From positions 96,001 to 160,000 of the forward strand of contig CAWCFX010000006.1 in assembly GCA_963795085.1 (NCBI GenBank): DNA of 64,000 nt, read 5' to 3'. How positions within the stretch are numbered: position 1 is the first letter of the stretch; each line of letters opens with the position of its first letter. This DNA comes from an uncultured Gemmatimonadales bacterium. GTDB lineage: Bacteria > Gemmatimonadota > Gemmatimonadetes > Gemmatimonadales > GWC2-71-9. The position numbers are program-made. Shown piece after piece: positions 38,601 to 47,600 of this stretch.

Positions 38601-41600
38601 GGCGATGCCTTCACGCGGTTTTCACGCGCCCGGCCTATTATTCATGGCCTACGCTACAGCCGGAACCTGCCGGCCGGCCGTGGCGCAGCCGTGACCTGGC
38701 CGGTCCATCCTCAAGGAGGCGCGTGTGGATCTCAGTCCCGCTCACATCCACCTGATGTTCAACCATATCCCGGTGCTGGGACCCTGGTTTCTCGCCCTGC
38801 TCTTCGCGTTCGGACTGGTCCGCAAGTCTCCCGACCTGCTTCGCGCCGCCATGCTGCTGACGGTACTGCTGGCCGGCACGACCGGATTGGTCTTTCTGAC
38901 CGGCGAACCGGCTGAGCACCAGGTCGAGGAACAGGCCTGGTTCGATGAGGACCGGGTGCACGAGCACGAGGAGCGGGCCGAGGCCGGGCTGATCGCCACC
39001 GCCATCACCGGAGTTCTCGCCCTGGTGGGGCTGGTGCTGGCGCGGAAGGGCAGACCCCTGCACCGGGGCCTGGTCCTCATGGTGCTGGCGGCGACCCTGA
39101 TCACCGGCGGACTCTTCGGGTGGACAGCCCTGGCCGGAGGCGAAATTCGCCATGACGAGGTTCGCCCCCCAGGGCATAGTGTCCGCGTCTGACCCGCCGG
39201 GTCCCGGGGATCCGTGACGCGGGAAATTCTCTGGCGCCGGCTGGACCGGCCGGGGATGGAGGCGGCCAGCCTGTCCCGGCGCGGGGCGAACTGGAATCTC
39301 CAGGGCACCGTGCTGGTGGAGGAATCGGGACGGCCCTGCCGGCTCGACTATGCGGTCGTCTGTGACCGCGAGTGGCGCACCCAGTGGGCCCGGGTCAGCG
39401 GCTGGATCGGTTCGGCGCTGGTGACCCAGCGACTGGCCCGGAGCCCGTCCGGCGAGTGGCGCCAGAACGGCGAAGTGCGCGCCGGGGTGCTGGGGTGCGT
39501 GGACCTCGATCTTGCGTTCTCTCCTGCCACCAACCTTCTCCCCATCAGGCGGCTGGCCCTTGCGGTGGGAGCCGGAGAAACGGTCCGCGCCGCCTGGCTC
39601 CGCTTTCCGGATTTTCAACTGGTGCCGCTGGAACAGCGCTATACCAGGACCGGCGAGCAGGAGTACCGGTATGAGAGCGGAAATGGCGCGTTCACCGCCG
39701 GCATCTCGGTTGACGGCGACGGACTGGTGGTACGCTATGGAGCCCTGTGGGTCGCTGAGCCGCTCCGCCCGCCGGGCACCTAGCGTGGGCAAGGCCAGCG
39801 CCGGTGTCCTGCTCTTCCGAAGACGCGGCCCCGACCTCGAAGTCCTGCTGGTCCACCCGGGCGGTCCCTTCTGGGCCAGGAAAGACGCGGGCGCCTGGTC
39901 GATACCCAAGGGTGTGATCGAGGGGGAAGAGGATCCCGAACAGGCGGCGTTCCGGGAACTGAGGGAAGAAACCGGGTGGGACCTCGCGGGCGATCCGATC
40001 CGCCTGGAGCCGGTCCGGCAGGCCGGGGGCAAAGTGGTTCACGCCTGGGGACTGGAGACCGATGTGGATTCCTCGAGCTGCCGCAGCAACACCTTTCAGA
40101 TGGAGTGGCCGCCCCGTTCGGGCCGGCAGCAGGAGTTCCCGGAAGTGGACCGGGCCGGCTGGTTCTCGCTCAGTGAGGCCCGGGCCAGGATTCTGCCCGG
40201 CCAGATCCCGTTGCTCGACGACCTCGCCACCAGGCTCAGACATCCCCCCAAGTGAGCCGCCCACCGGCTCAGGACCGCGGCGCCCCCTTCTTGCTGCTCT
40301 CCGAGCGAGCCTTGATAATCGCGTCCACCAGCGGGGCCTGGTCGAACCGAACCGGGTCAGTGGCCGGGAGGCCGGTGTCCCGGGCTGCCTTCTCGCAGGC
40401 CGCCCGGGCTTCCTCCTCGGTCATGTCAAAAGTGTTGAGGCAGATCCCGATCACCCGCGTGGGATGCACCGCGGAGCCGATGGCTTCGTACCAGCGGATG
40501 TAGTCGGTCAGGGGCGGGATACGGAGCCACGAGGCCTCCCGGTAATCTCCGATATACTCCCGGCTGGCCTGGTGGCAGAGGATGAGCGCGTCGGGACAGG
40601 AGCCATGCAGGAGCCCAACCGTGACGGCCGAGTAGCCGGGATGGTTGATACTCCCCTGTCCTTCGACCAGCACGATATCCGCGTTCTTGGCGCCTTCCAG
40701 GACCAGCATCTCCGCTGCCCCGTTCACGAAGTCGGAGACCACGGCATCCACCGCGATGCCCCAGCCTTCGATCATGATCCCGGTCTGGCCGGTCGCCACG
40801 AACCGGGTCCGGATGCCGCGCCGGTTCAGGTCGCTGGCCAACTGGAGCTGGGCGGTCATCTTGCCCACGTTGCAGTCGGTTCCCACCGCCGTCACCACGA
40901 ACGCGTCCACTTCTTTCGCCGCGCCGGAGGCCACCGGGATCTCCGCCGGCGGCTTTCGCAGGTCAAAGAGCCGGGTCCCCTTCTGCTCGGCCTTGGCCAC
41001 CAGCATGGGATCGTCGGTGAGGAATGTGTGCAGGCCGCTCCAGAGGTCGCACCCGGCGGCGATCGCTTCCGCCAGCCAGCCCCGCCACTTCTCGGGCAGT
41101 TTCCCGCCCGCCGGGGCGATGCCGATCAGGACCGCGGTCGGCTTCAGGGCCAGCCCTTCGGCCATGGTGGCGACCACCGGGATGGTGCCGCCGAATCCCA
41201 GGACCTGCTGGACGGTCTTGCCCGCCTGCAAGTGATCCACCACGGCCAGCGTCTGCTCGGGCCGGTAGCGGATGACCGAGTTGGCGGTCTTGGAGGTCAG
41301 CGGGCCGAAGTCGCCGTCGGCGAGAATGACGAAGCGGGGCAAGGACATTGAGGGAATTAGGGAATTGAGGGAATGTTGGAATTGAGGGAATGTTGGAATT
41401 GAGGGAATGTTGGAATTGAGGGAATGTTGGAATTTGAGGGAAATGTTGGAATTGAGGGAATGTTGGAATTGAGTTGAGCCTCTCAAATTCCACAATTCCC
41501 TCAATTCCCCCATTCCTTCAATTCCCTAATTCCCTCAATTCTAATCTTTCCCATCCTCCAGCAGTTCGGCATCGTGAATGGTTTCACCGCCCTTGCCGAG

Positions 41601-44600: not shown

Positions 44601-47600
44601 TCTGATGCGGCGGGCAAAGGCCCGCCCCACCGGCCAGCACAGCACCAGCACTCCGGCCATGACGGACAGCACTATCAGCGCCGCCACTGCGGGCGGCAGG
44701 TGGGGGCCGGGAAAGAGCCAGATCACCGGATCCGGCGGTACGGGCGCCTGGAGAGTGATCATCTTCCCTCCTCTAACTTCTCCGCCTCGCGAACCCGGGT
44801 GAGCAGGCGCTCGGCAAAGTCCAGCCGCTCCTCGAGCTCCAGGATCCGCTGCTGTCCTGCCTCCAGCTCCGCGATCCGGTCGTCAAGTTCCTCGACGCGT
44901 TCGGCGGGGAGGGCGACGGTCTCCTCCGCGGCCAGGGCCCGGGTACGCCGCCAGGCCAGGAGCGCCAGCGAGGAGGCGAACACGCCGGACATCAGCATGT
45001 CTTCAACCCGTCCCTCGCTGGCCTCGGAGAGCAGGGCGGCGACCCCCAGGGTCACCAGCACATGCACGGCAACGTCAAAGAGATCCATCCCGAACAGTTT
45101 CCAGCGGGTCTTCACGGGCCGATCTCCCGGGGTTCCGCCTTGCGGGCCAGTAGCCGCTCGGCAAAGTCCATTCGTTCTTCCAATTCATTCATTCGGCCCT
45201 GGTGTGCCTCGAGGTCAGCCACCCGGGTTCGCAGGTGGTCGAGTTCCTCCAGTACCGCCGGGTCCTGCCCTCTGCCCTCGATGCGCCGGGCGATCGCCCG
45301 AACCAGGGGCCAGAGAATTACCACCGCGCCGGCGACGACACCCAGAACAATGAGCACGAAGACGGGCGCCGGCAGCACTTCCCATGGCGCGGGTGTTCCA
45401 TGGGGGAAGGGAGGAAACTGCTGGACCAGGACCTGGTCCGGCGACGGGGGCGCGGGAGGCGCCACTTGCAGGAGGGTCATGATCCCTTTCCGATCTCGCC
45501 CGGCTCGCGGCCCTGGGCCAGTAGCCGTTCAGCGAAGTCCATTCGTTCGTGCAGGTCGCTCAATTCTCGACGCAATTGGTCCAGTTCTTCGTAGATCACC
45601 GGGTCGGGGACGGGGGCGGCGTGCTTCCCCCGCAAACGGTCGGCGACGGCTCGCCCGACCGGACTGAAGGACAGCGCGGTCAGCGTGCCGCCGCCGAAAA
45701 TGAGCAAGATCGCAAGGATGTCTTCCATTCCTTTACTCTCCGGAGAGCGGGGTGGCCGGCCGAGGGCGGCTCAGCATCCGCTCGGCAAAATCAAGGCGCT
45801 CCTGGGCTTCTCCCAGCTGGCGCTGCAGCTCATCAACCTGTTCCCGGAGAAAGCCCAGCTCGGCGCGGAAATCCTCCTCGGCCTCGCCGCTGGTGCCCTG
45901 GATCCTGCGGCCCAGCGCGATTCCGACCGGGCTGTGCATGATGCGCACAACGCCGAAGATGATGCCCCCGGTAATCAGGACCCCGGTGATCATCCCGAAG
46001 ATCGGAATCAGTTCTCCCATGTCGGTTCCGTTCAGTGGTGCGGGTGCAGCCCATCCACGAGGGTGTACGGGATGGTGTTCCACAATGTTTCAAGTCGGAA
46101 CACCTCAAGGGCGGCCACCGATGCCAAGGTGTTGGCCGCCAGCATGTTAGGACACGATTTCAACCGACTGGATCGCCGCCAGCGAAACGGCGATCTCAGT
46201 TTCTTCGGCTCCGGCCGGTCGGAGGAATACCTCATGCGCCGCCATCTCGGGGTCAACGCTGGTGGGCACGCCGACGACTTGAAGGTTTCCGGTTGTCCGG
46301 ATGCGCACGGCCTGCTCATGATCGCCGGCGTATCCCAGTAGAGATACGATCTGGTCGTATTCCATGGAATCCCCCACGGAAAAAGGGTTGCCTGCGCTTT
46401 CGGCAGAGGATGATCCTTTAACATGCGGCAATGACTCCCCGAACGCAAAACCGCCCCCGGGGTCTCCGGAGGCGGCCTGGGCCGGCCGTGCCGTCAGGTG
46501 GCCGGCCGGGGCTTGGGGTTCATGAGGTGGTCGTTCAGATAGTTGGTAATGAGGGTGAACAGGTGCAGCCGGGTATTGCCCCCGAAGATCCCGTGGTTGC
46601 GGTTGGGATACTCCATCAGGGCGAATTGCTTGTTGGCGGTAACCAGCGAGTTCACCAGCGCCTGGCTGTTCTGGAAGTGCACGTTATCATCGCCGGACCC
46701 GTGCACCAGGAGCAGGTCTCCCCGAAGCTGGTTCACGTAGCTCAGGGGCGAACCCTTGTCGTATCCCTCCCGGTTTTCCTGGGGGAGACCGTTATACCGC
46801 TCGGTGTAGATGTTATCGTAGTATTTCCAGTGCGTTACCGGCGCGACGGCCACGGCGGTCCGGTACACTTCGCCGTGCTGGAAGAGCGTGTTCAGGCTCA
46901 TGAATCCGCCATAGCTCCAGCCCCAGATGCCCATCCGGGTGGAATCCACGTAGGGCCACCGCCCGATGGCCCGGGCCGCAGCGGCCTGGTCCCGGGTTTC
47001 GACCACGCCCATCTGGCCGTAGATGATCTTCCGCCAATCCCGACCCCGCGCGCCGGTCCCCCGGTTATCGACGCTGGCCACGAGGTACCCCTGCTGGGTC
47101 AGGAGCAGAAACCAGAGATACTGGCTGCCCCCCCAGGAGTCGAGCACCGTCTGGGACCCCGGTCCCCCGTACACGAAGAAGAGAATGGGATACTTCCGCG
47201 CCGGGTCGAACCCCGGGGGCTTCATGATCCAGCCGTTGAGGGCAACACCGTCCTCCACCGGCACCTGGAAGAACTCCCGCGGTCCCTCCTTGAGCACCGC
47301 GACCCGTGACCGCAGCCGGGCGTTCTCGACCACGGTGCGCGCCACCGCGTGGGTCGGCAACTGGACCAGCGCGGTGACCGGGGGAACCCCCATGCGGGAG
47401 TGGGTGTGGAAGGCCCATTGAAAATTGGGCGCGACGTTGTAGCTGTTGGAGCCAGGCTGATCCGCCGGGGTCAACCGCTCCGGGCGTCCCCGGCCGTCCA
47501 GCCTGGCGCGGAAGAGGTATCGCTGGGCCGGGTTGTCGGGTGAGGCGACAAAGTAGACAAAGCCGCCCTTTTCATCGATGCCTTGCACGCTGATGACATC

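Follow-up and report, generated by a model that had tools for sequence, protein, structure and literature searches.

The locus described here raises a simple question: why should ten related small membrane proteins be encoded in a row next to the gene for PspA, and do they work together with it? We examined the array in a window of 64,000 nt (the whole stretch of DNA analysed; all coordinates are positions within it) from a host of the phylum Gemmatimonadota, and compared it with the corresponding loci of relatives. The array proteins emerge as the best candidates for membrane partners of the PspA repair system, a proposal drawn from gene order.

A ten-gene array upstream of CesT-pspA

Ten consecutive ORFs of 83-122 aa each occupy positions 42905-46083 of the minus strand (Table 1), in agreement with the tandem array of small paralogs reported in the first-pass annotation. 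The range given there, 41541-46365, was wider than the array itself: besides pspA and the CesT-like gene, it takes in one small, unrelated gene (46147-46365/46431). The placement of the array directly upstream of the CesT-like gene and pspA was correctly described. The CesT-like product scores 91.3 bits against PF22550 (gathering score 27). The window's PspA scores 159.5 bits against PF04012 (cut-off 33.9) and covers profile positions 1-216 of 220; it matches TIGR02977 at E 9.3e-40, below the cut-off of that model, and no other protein of the genome matches PspA_IM30 at E<=1e-10. The likely start of the CesT-like gene is its 10th codon (ATG at 42700, 131 aa), because all of 41 orthologs keep M10. 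It is separated from pspA by a gap of 2 nt.

The nine junctions within the array comprise seven 4-nt overlaps, one 1-nt overlap and one 4-nt gap, and this tight arrangement suggests joint expression with CesT-pspA. For p5, whose longest ORF (182 aa) overlaps p6, the start taken is the ATG that overlaps the p6 stop codon, and p10 would have 95 aa if it started at the ATG at codon 22. Directly past the TAG stop of p1, and in phase with it, lies a decayed eleventh copy of the motif, which opens without a start codon, lacks a transmembrane (TM) helix and has A in place of the invariant F.

Table 1. Features of the array and of the genes downstream of it, in order of position within the window (E values of p1-p10: profile of the ten copies).
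Feature	Position	Strand	Match	Remarks
pspA (PspA/IM30)	41541..42302	-	PF04012, E 1.3e-46	253 aa; last gene of the cluster
CesT_Tir_1-like chaperone gene	42305..42727	-	PF22550, E 6.4e-26	140 aa from GTG
decayed eleventh motif copy	42797..42904	-	profile match, E 1.4e-5, positions 72-98	36 codons
p1	42905..43246	-	E 2.6e-28	113 aa; TTG start; two hydrophobic segments; motif at residue 94
p2	43243..43527	-	E 4.5e-31	94 aa; one TM; motif at residue 71
p3	43524..43811	-	E 2.7e-27	95 aa; one TM; motif at residue 70
p4	43811..44095	-	E 5.1e-25	94 aa; one TM; motif at residue 76
p5	44092..44445	-	E 1.6e-33	117 aa; two hydrophobic segments
p6	44442..44762	-	E 1.2e-32	106 aa; Pro-rich N-tail; one TM
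p7	44759..45115	-	E 7.7e-29	118 aa; two hydrophobic segments
p8	45112..45480	-	E 1.8e-36	122 aa; 39-residue Pro-rich N-tail without K/R; one TM
p9	45477..45728	-	E 3.6e-18	83 aa; shortest and best conserved type
p10	45733..46083	-	E 5.9e-29	116 aa from GTG; first gene of the array

In the alignment of the ten copies seven columns are invariant, and they make up the C-terminal motif E-R-x-D-F-x-E-R-x-L, just as had been claimed. Also common to the copies are a juxtamembrane P-x-G-R-A-x-x-R-R and a cytoplasmic helix. A single N-terminal TM helix, previously ascribed to the whole array, holds for seven of the ten proteins, but not for p1, p5 and p7, which have two hydrophobic segments. The single-TM copies carry 0-1 K/R in the tail before the TM and a basic stretch after it; over all ten copies, 1-7 K/R are found in the 15 residues past the last hydrophobic segment. 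The predicted topology obeys the positive-inside rule, with the N-terminus outside and the C-terminus inside. In p1, p5 and p7 the extra first helix would form a hairpin, and in all copies the TM would lead into a basic juxtamembrane stretch, then into a short loop, and last into a cytoplasmic helix some 30 residues long with the invariant motif at its end. The AlphaFold2 model of p9 has a helix at residues 2-35, a loop, and a second helix at 43-72 (mean pLDDT 86.8). Among 101 diverse members of the family, the invariant or near-invariant columns are those of the C-terminal motif and the juxtamembrane P/A/R, and the N-terminal parts are variable.

Family size and likeness to known proteins

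Searched against the whole genome, a profile of the ten copies recovers each of them with E values between 1.8e-36 and 3.6e-18, far better than chance would give. None of the copies reaches the cut-off of a Pfam or NCBIfam model, which upholds the earlier statement that the family has no curated model. The family is also large and unnamed, as had been proposed: it has 2931 representatives at 50% identity, and of 8000 proteins scored at least 6443 match at E<=1e-3; among the matches listed 0 of 120 family proteins have a Pfam domain and the only names are 'hypothetical', 'PilO' or 'PilN'. All named homologs belong to Gemmatimonadota. The array proteins form a previously undescribed family and represent a further variation on a known theme.

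The name 'PilO', given by one source, is most likely an annotation artefact. GspM and PilO have, like the array proteins, an N-terminal TM followed by a coiled coil, and GspM (NF040576) is the commonest sub-threshold match of the family (45 of 101 members, best 1.5e-5). Four window copies match it at 6.7-18.6 bits against a cut-off of 60, three of them aligning up to position 75 of the 180-position model and one at 22-56. In GspM and PilO the TM and coiled coil are followed by a periplasmic C-terminal domain. The array proteins end 9-16 residues past the motif, so this domain is missing, and the basic residues after the TM place their helix in the cytoplasm, unlike that of GspM/PilO. SlyX, a soluble coiled-coil protein of unknown function, is small, with about 70 aa. 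Its N-terminal R-I-x-E-L-E-x-R-L-A-(F/Y)-Q-(E/D) (PF04102) resembles R-x-x-E-L-E-E-R-L-D-F-A-E-R of the family, but it has no TM helix, which all ten array proteins possess, it carries the motif at the N-terminus, and its genomic context is another. The best SlyX match reaches 17.2 bits against a cut-off of 30 and covers profile positions 1-24 only. On these sequence comparisons SlyX is best regarded as a decoy, and short coiled-coil likeness of this kind would not be evidence of homology.

Like the array proteins, LiaI of Bacillus and PspM (Rv2743c) of Mycobacterium are small, reside in the membrane, have the gene of a PspA homolog as neighbour and are confined to one phylum, and passages of Ravi et al. 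(2024; PMC11237479) name both as membrane partners of PspA homologs. No sequence relation to the array proteins was found: PspM (NF047839) matches p5 only (E 0.0086, 16 bits against a cut-off of 80), and no LiaI model is among the Pfam/NCBIfam matches of the array copies at E<=10, though no search aimed at LiaI was made. Neither LiaI nor PspM is known to occur as a tandem array.

PspB of Pseudomonadota (PF06667, TIGR02976) calls for a closer comparison. It is likewise a small protein of the pspA cluster with one N-terminal TM and a cytoplasmic C-terminus, and the seven single-TM copies have the same succession of TM and cytoplasmic helical part, as judged from hydropathy, K/R counts and the p9 model. 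Passages of PMC11237479 describe this architecture and pspA-cluster placement of PspB, and report divergent PspB domains as well as PspB duplicates within operons. Could the array proteins be true, if very divergent, PspB homologs that belong to the PspB superfamily and have multiplied to ten copies? We consider this rather unlikely. The shared architecture (N-terminal TM and cytoplasmic helix in 75-120 aa) and the pspA cluster speak for it, and so do a number of faint profile matches. TIGR02976 matches 8 of the 10 copies (E 0.035-5.4, 7.4-14.4 bits against a cut-off of 51.7), always placing the C-terminal motif at profile positions about 38-75, and 39 of the 101 family members at E<=1 (best 3.7e-5). 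PspB and the array proteins alike have, in the cytoplasmic helix and near the C-terminus, a conserved stretch resembling E-R-x-x-x-x-E-x-(I/L)-L. When 157 family sequences were compared with 54 diverse PspB sequences by hhalign, the score was 28.8 (P 9.8e-5, probability 58%), against 14.7 for the reversed PspB alignment and a maximum of 14.7 (mean 9.4) for 60 column shuffles, and with the greedy setting the two were colinear over 78 columns, TM included. When run against one Pseudomonadota genome, the family profile scores highest on a divergent ORF resembling PspB (E 0.003), and tandem PspB duplicates are seen as two adjacent matches in one Pseudomonadota genome.

However, the unrelated, soluble SlyX scores as well against the family profile (26.9, P 1.6e-4). 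A SlyX HMM searched against this genome returns family ORFs as 6 of its 8 matches, and the PspB models behave in the same way (7 of 8 matches in one search, the top 5 in another), while GspM (45/101) and CcmI (34/101) recur as often as PspB. Neither Pfam PspB in this genome nor the family profile in E. coli yields a match at E<=10, and the P-x-G-R-A-x-x-R-R and invariant D-F of the array were not seen in the 54 PspB sequences extracted. The array further differs from PspB in its ten copies, in its position upstream and not downstream of pspA with the CesT-like gene between, and in having no PspC partner. Since the likeness to PspB is no stronger than that to SlyX or GspM, homology is not shown, and the original statement that the proteins are unrelated to PspB by sequence stands in practice.

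Candidate membrane partners of the CesT-PspA module

The two genes downstream of the array (PF22550 and PF04012) correspond to the CesT/Tir-PspA dyad of Ravi et al. (2024; PMC11237479), where the first-pass annotation had located it; the string 'gemmatimon' occurs 0 times in the main text, again as indicated. In the portions of that article considered here a small TM partner upstream of the dyad is not mentioned, and its supplementary tables or web app may list such neighbourhoods. In our genome (93% complete) PspC (PF04024) has no match at E<=1, and with Pfam PspB also absent, no classical membrane partner is on hand. From gene order, we propose that the array proteins are lineage-specific membrane partners of the CesT-PspA module, PspB-like by architecture, and we put the probability of this reading at about 0.45. 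The array, the CesT-like chaperone and PspA would then be made together from a single string of closely packed genes, most of which overlap. The parts within and outside the membrane, which are variable, would sit in, or sense, different membrane states, and the invariant cytoplasmic helix would offer one common docking site to which PspA or its chaperone could bind, a role that may be likened to that of PspB/PspC, LiaI and PspM in other phyla.

The neighbourhood was compared in 20 loci from 20 genera of the host's own taxonomic family (f1; other families are numbered likewise), chosen by protein-family score and not by pspA. An array of 4-10 copies abuts pspA in 20/20 of these loci, with the CesT-like gene between in 18, so that the order said to be kept in relatives is indeed kept. 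The f1 flanks are syntenic too (a DUF1611 gene, a small upstream gene and an S9 peptidase), and the 20/20 count therefore largely reflects inherited order. Outside f1, where the upstream flank differs and consists of uvrA or a gene for serine dehydratase, one copy only stands directly upstream of CesT-pspA in 5/5 loci of f5, f6 and f8, and f3 has a 5-copy array at CesT-pspA. The S9 peptidase and small upstream gene of the window were not found in the CesT-pspA loci outside f1, which indicates that CesT-pspA is the neighbour kept. The dyad itself is kept across the class. It occurs without any adjacent copy in 21/21 such loci, in f2 (13), f4 (1) and f7 (5), and 0 of 22 pspA loci of f2, f4, f7 and f11 have an adjacent copy, two CesT-less f2 loci included; the small proteins are thus not required by the dyad.

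Members away from pspA and other readings

Not all members of the family belong to the psp locus. One single-copy member, with the motif E-E-x-x-F-x-x-x-L-L, is flanked by bshC and murJ in 30/30 loci, and this bshC-X-murJ member was present in 12/12 genomes searched in f1, 14/14 in f6, 11/12 in f7, and 1/1 in both f4 and f5. Its HMM also matches 6 of the 10 array copies and all pspA-adjacent single copies, which makes them one superfamily. In this genome, one dispersed copy starts 2 nt past a PadR-family gene (PF03551, 3.5e-22), another forms a fusion with a TM2 domain, and a further three are found elsewhere. Members without a pspA link (bshC-murJ, PadR, TM2 and others) count against a partnership with CesT-PspA.

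Such members would be expected if the family were a general envelope scaffold not working through PspA. Its ancestral job would be that of the bshC-X-murJ member, for example organising a membrane complex, and the array would be an amplified offshoot that came to stand beside pspA via shared regulation or inherited order. The wide distribution and constant flanks of the murJ-linked member, its membership in one superfamily with the array, the unrelated contexts of the dispersed copies and the 21/21 loci in which CesT-pspA does without a copy are all in line with this. On the other hand, five families of the class have copies beside CesT-pspA with differing flanks, the tight junctions suggest joint expression with the dyad, and the array clade (f1 and f3) has its own invariant motif, distinct from that of the murJ-linked member. 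We regard the scaffold account as rather unlikely.

The PadR-family gene next to that dispersed copy suggests yet another role, namely that of membrane tethers holding back a transcription regulator, whereby the array would control psp expression rather than anchor PspA. Pairs of PadR-like regulators and membrane helical partners in PSP systems are described in passages of PMC11237479, and a PadR gene is paired with a copy in 5 of 30 PadR loci examined. However, the other 25 lack the pairing, the array neither contains nor adjoins a regulator gene, and neither a sigma-54 nor a sigma-70 consensus promoter could be found here, all of which makes a tether function improbable. Finally, there is next to no chance that the genes are non-functional, as miscalled ORFs or decaying duplicates: one copy past p1 has decayed and relatives have anything from 4 to 10 copies, but this reading is already contradicted by the ten intact copies, by their conservation in 80/80 other genomes of f1, by array orthologs at 40-59% mean identity in other genera and by the invariant motif being kept.

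Several paralog types have been maintained over the long term. In the 20 f1 loci, reciprocal best matches were obtained for p9 in 19, for p8 in 18, for p10 in 13 and for p7 in 11, the counterparts of p10 taking first or second place in the relatives' arrays. Distinct paralog types keep the same order across genera, and their persistence argues against redundancy. Within the array, the tree joins p5 with p7 (support 99/95) and p6 with p8 (95/85) as sister pairs.

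The tandem array and its gene cluster

Twelve closely packed minus-strand genes occupy positions 41541-46083 of the window: ten small ORFs, numbered from p10 (first in the array) to p1, followed by a CesT-like gene and pspA. Seven of the junctions inside the array are 4-nt overlaps, one is a 1-nt overlap and one a 4-nt gap. Between the CesT-like gene and pspA there are 2 nt, and the 177 nt between p1 and the CesT-like gene form the only long gap in the cluster. Identity to p1 among the ten proteins is 24-40%, and their alignment contains seven invariant columns, in the C-terminal motif E-R-x-D-F-x-E-R-x-L. 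When the ten-copy profile was run against the whole genome it recovered every copy (E 1.8e-36 to 3.6e-18), indicating that the array is real and far beyond chance. The ORFs, the alignment and the genome profile thus bear out the first-pass annotation of ten tandem paralogs with an invariant motif beside a CesT-like gene and pspA. A promoter scan found no sigma-70-like site here, and the three terminator-like sites were not above the shuffled-sequence level. The sigma-54 consensus (<=2 mismatches) gave 36 matches against 62 expected, and neither the array nor pspA has one upstream of it on the minus strand.

Positions of the features discussed (window positions, unless a genome and contig are named; G000 is the source genome, L-numbers are locus handles)
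Feature	Position	Strand	Remarks
p10 (first of ten ORFs of 83-122 aa)	45733-46083	minus	
p1 (last of the ten)	42905-43246	minus	
CesT_Tir_1 gene	42305-42727	minus	PF22550, E 6.4e-26; after p1
pspA	41541-42302	minus	PF04012, E 1.3e-46; after the CesT-like gene
Stretch with degenerate motif	42797-42904	minus	36 codons in the p1 frame
17-bp tandem repeats	41347-41541		~195 bases; 7.4 and 3.3 copies
Small gene	46147-46431	minus	72-94 aa, depending on start
bshC-X-murJ trio	G000:C2:408984-412371		L026, L297
Family member within the trio	G000:C2:410552-410833		dispersed copy
PadR-linked member	G000:C6:62079-62919		L021, L267; 88 aa
TM2-domain protein	G000:C2:460664-461083		L023; 139 aa
pspA locus, another class of the phylum	G491:C41:1-9507		L236
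Two PspB genes, Pseudomonadota genome	G335:C1:1117371-1117807		L129

The first pass had also given each protein one transmembrane helix. This holds for seven copies, which have a single hydrophobic segment, but not for p1, p5 and p7, which have two each and cluster together in the tree. In the seven, the tail before the segment contains 0-1 K/R and a basic stretch follows it, so the sequence predicts that the N-terminus lies outside and the C-terminus inside. The outer tail measures 15-39 residues in p6, p8 and p10 and is Pro-rich in p6 and p8. Across 101 diverse members the N-terminal parts are variable, and the conserved columns are the juxtamembrane P, A and R of P-x-G-R-A-x-x-R-R and the C-terminal E-x-E-E-R-x-D-F-x-E-R-x-L. 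The proteins of the array end 9-16 residues beyond the motif. The AlphaFold2 model of p9 (mean pLDDT 86.8) consists of a helix at residues 2-35, a Pro-rich loop and a helix at 43-72. A search of solved structures returned generic coiled coils only: MukB (E 0.0046), then SYNZIP5, STAT3 and GCN4, with a SlyX homolog at E 1.7.

Three further elements of the locus deserve mention. Straight after the TAG codon of p1, the reading frame continues into a stretch with a degenerate second motif, E-L-E-E-R-V-D-A-A-E-R-V-L, and no transmembrane segment; it is what remains either of an eleventh copy that was lost or of a protein that bore two motifs. In P0241, a 120-aa relative from the database, a single ORF contains two intact motifs. 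The small gene at the other end of the cluster, for which no family match was found, separates the array from an S9 peptidase gene in relatives too, at 16 of the 20 loci. Lastly, 17-bp repeats lie between pspA and a DUF1611 gene; the genome contains 68 exact copies of their unit, which form tandem runs at about 30 sites spread over four of its six contigs. Since the long ORF call for the DUF1611 gene (414 aa) runs through these repeats, the gene itself probably begins further inside the ORF.

Range of the family and its link to pspA

None of the Pfam or NCBIfam models reaches its cut-off for any of p1-p10. Of 8000 proteins scored in the protein database, 6443 matched the family profile at E<=1e-3; in a library of representatives at 50% identity there were 2931 matches at E<=1e-3 and 704 at 1e-10. 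No Pfam domain is present in any of the 120 matches listed, which are named 'hypothetical', 'PilO' or 'PilN' and whose named organisms are all Gemmatimonadota. In the ESM Atlas all 30 feature matches are unnamed clusters, the three displayed being from Gemmatimonadota, and named clusters yielded no usable match. This is a real, large and unnamed family, and one database is probably mistaken in calling proteins of it 'PilO'. The best matches to the profile are three database proteins of 196-209 aa (P0121, P0123 and P0124). In P0121 two units, the first p9-like and the other p8-like, are joined in frame and in array order. If genuine, the join would place the second unit on the opposite side of the membrane; it may instead be an artefact of assembly or gene calling.

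At E<=1e-5 the profile has 3-18 matches in every one of 80 genomes of the same taxonomic family (78 genera, with the unpublished genomes G415 and G469 counted in). The distribution in a phylum sample, which takes in the unpublished G522 and G554, is tabulated by family.

Family members in a phylum sample, and the arrangement at pspA loci outside the source genome's family (f1; f2-f12 are other families of the phylum)
Family	Genomes with match	Matches per genome	pspA loci	Arrangement
f1	53/53	4-20		
f2	17/28	1-3	15	copy absent; CesT-like gene in 13
f3	1/1	5	1	5-copy array upstream
f4	1/1	1	1	copy absent
f5	1/1	5	1	single copy directly upstream of CesT-pspA
f6	1/5	2	3	single copy directly upstream of CesT-pspA
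f7	5/9	1-2	5	copy absent
f8	0/2		1	single copy directly upstream of CesT-pspA
f9	0/1			
f10	1/13	1		
f11	0/3		1	copy and CesT absent; sigma-54 activator-like gene in their place
f12	1/3	1		

Twenty loci from 20 genera of the same family were chosen on best family scores, independently of pspA. An array of 4-10 copies lies directly upstream of pspA in every one; in 18 the CesT-like gene stands between the two. The order that the first pass had described in relatives is therefore upheld. The flanking DUF1611 gene, the small unnamed gene and the S9 peptidase gene are also syntenic in these loci, so the count of 20/20 largely reflects inherited order. More telling is the comparison of 28 pspA loci from other families, where a copy is adjacent to pspA in 5/5 loci of f5, f6 and f8 versus 0/22 of f2, f4, f7 and f11. 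These single copies carry the variant motif E-E-Q-x-F-(L/M)-x-x-L-L and stand behind a uvrA or a serine dehydratase gene. As the 22 loci indicate, the CesT-pspA dyad does not need the small proteins, although it is paired with them in five families. PspA itself is present in 53/53 genomes of f1 and 26/28 of f2, and was not found in f10 (0/13) or f12 (0/3). At one locus from another class of the phylum, L236, pspA follows a 344-aa gene, and both the CesT-like gene and the family copy are absent; by eye, the product looks like a sigma-54 enhancer-binding activator, as in the classical PspF-type arrangement.

PspA/IM30/Vipp1 proteins are bacterial relatives of ESCRT-III that mend membranes. To our knowledge, their recruitment to the membrane is understood in few phyla only, each with its own small membrane partner. 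We propose that the ten proteins serve the CesT-PspA module as lineage-specific membrane partners, in which variable membrane parts would bear one invariant cytoplasmic docking helix. Because all functional steps are drawn from gene order, packing and conservation, we put the probability of this reading at only about 0.45. A complex prediction that combined the p9 tail (residues 24-83) with PspA and the CesT-like protein, using alignments as input, scored 0.00 in both runs and is evidence neither way.

A small membrane partner encoded beside pspA is a known theme; what is new is this variant, and its tenfold tandem amplification is unusual. The CesT/Tir-PspA dyad is described in passages of PMC11237479, and 'gemmatimon' does not occur in the main text of that paper. 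Among the papers listed by full-text literature searches, judged by title or the start of the abstract, none deals with such a family, which within those searches is undescribed. The large, phylum-restricted family (2931 representatives at 50% identity) offers a concrete and testable candidate partner, and its ten-residue invariant motif is suited to point mutation and peptide-binding assays. Gemmatimonadota are abundant in soil, and we know of almost no experimental genetics in the phylum.

Paralog types and copies elsewhere in the genome

Reciprocal best hits across the 20 loci were most frequent for p9 (19 loci), p8 (18), p10 (13) and p7 (11), followed by p2 (9), p4 (6), p1 (4), p3 and p5 (3 each) and p6 (none). 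The early places of the arrays are held by p10-like (place 1-2) and p9-like (places 1-4) copies. Together these findings indicate that three to four distinct types are old and kept in order, the rest turning over. This raises the question of why such distinct types have been retained for so long, in up to ten copies.

Besides the array, the source genome has six dispersed copies and a single decayed copy. One of the dispersed copies sits between bshC, a gene of bacillithiol synthesis, and murJ, which encodes the lipid II flippase; it is single-copy and has the variant motif E-E-T-A-F-L-Q-K-L. Orthologs were found in 12/12 genomes of f1, 14/14 of f6, 11/12 of f7 and the one genome each of f4 and f5, and the same query found none in f2, f8, f9 or f13. 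BshC and MurJ flank the member in 30/30 loci, which represent four families of the class, and why a sister copy should stand between them at every locus examined is a second question raised by the data. The HMM of this member also picks up all five single copies next to pspA and, in the source genome, six of the array's ten copies, so that they all belong to one superfamily. In the tree, one half (support 94/94) consists of the f1 and f3 array copies; the other holds the murJ-linked members together with the single copies, without internal resolution. As the two are mixed there, we make no claim either way on an independent recruitment of single copies to pspA. The main rival to the membrane-partner reading starts from this gene: the proteins would be a general envelope scaffold family with the bshC-X-murJ gene as its ancestral member. 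We regard it as the less probable account.

Another dispersed copy is fused to a TM2 domain (PF05154, 1.3e-19), the family motif being C-terminal, and therefore the helix module can use another membrane anchor. In front of a third, a PadR-family regulator gene ends 2 nt before the copy starts; this pairing recurs in 5 of 30 PadR loci, all from close relatives, and is too narrow to explain the family.

A more elaborate proposal, which we consider unlikely, is that the array is a multi-paralog receptor set for the ESCRT-III-like PspA. Several non-redundant bitopic proteins, retained over long periods, unlike in their membrane and outer parts and sharing an identical cytoplasmic docking helix (E-R-x-D-F-x-E-R-x-L), would report different kinds of membrane damage to one CesT-chaperoned PspA, and the helix module of the bshC-X-murJ member would link the repair system to lipid II export. 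If true, this would be a PspA partner system unrelated to PspB/C, LiaI and PspM, and the first in the form of a paralog array.

Comparison with PspB

True membership of the PspB family would be compatible with a role as membrane partners, and both the architecture and the gene neighbourhood are alike. The Pfam PspB model has no match in the genome at E<=10, and the NCBIfam model matches eight of the ten copies weakly, in constant register. The PspB set comprised 54 sequences, contributed by 51 of the 401 Pseudomonadota genomes. Its profile-profile comparison with the family scored 28.8 (P 9.8e-5, probability 58%), against 14.7 for the reversed alignment and <=14.7 for 60 shuffles. Seven of the eight genome matches of the PspB model are family ORFs, and five family ORFs head the ranking of 49,529 ORFs by our own PspB HMM. 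When the family profile was run against a genome that bears PspB, its top match was an ORF of divergent PspB-like sequence (E 0.003); in E. coli it found none. The ORF ranking was first taken as strong evidence of homology and then dropped as a specific sign of it, since an HMM of SlyX, a soluble coiled-coil protein, acts alike: family ORFs make up six of its eight genome matches and rank as high as with the PspB models. The SlyX decoy also scored 26.9 (P 1.6e-4) against the family, and the recurring weak matches among the 101 members include GspM (45) and CcmI (34) beside PspB (39). The likeness to PspB is thus not specific; homology is possible on sequence grounds, and we hold actual membership to be doubtful. 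PspC was not found in the source genome, which is 93% complete. According to passages of PMC11237479, PspB is rarely encountered outside Proteobacteria; PspC fusions of divergent forms occur, as do duplicates within operons. The Pseudomonadota genome G335 has two full-length PspB genes head to tail, 2 bases apart. In G141, another ORF, PspB-like but divergent, lies about 500 bases away from the PspB gene.
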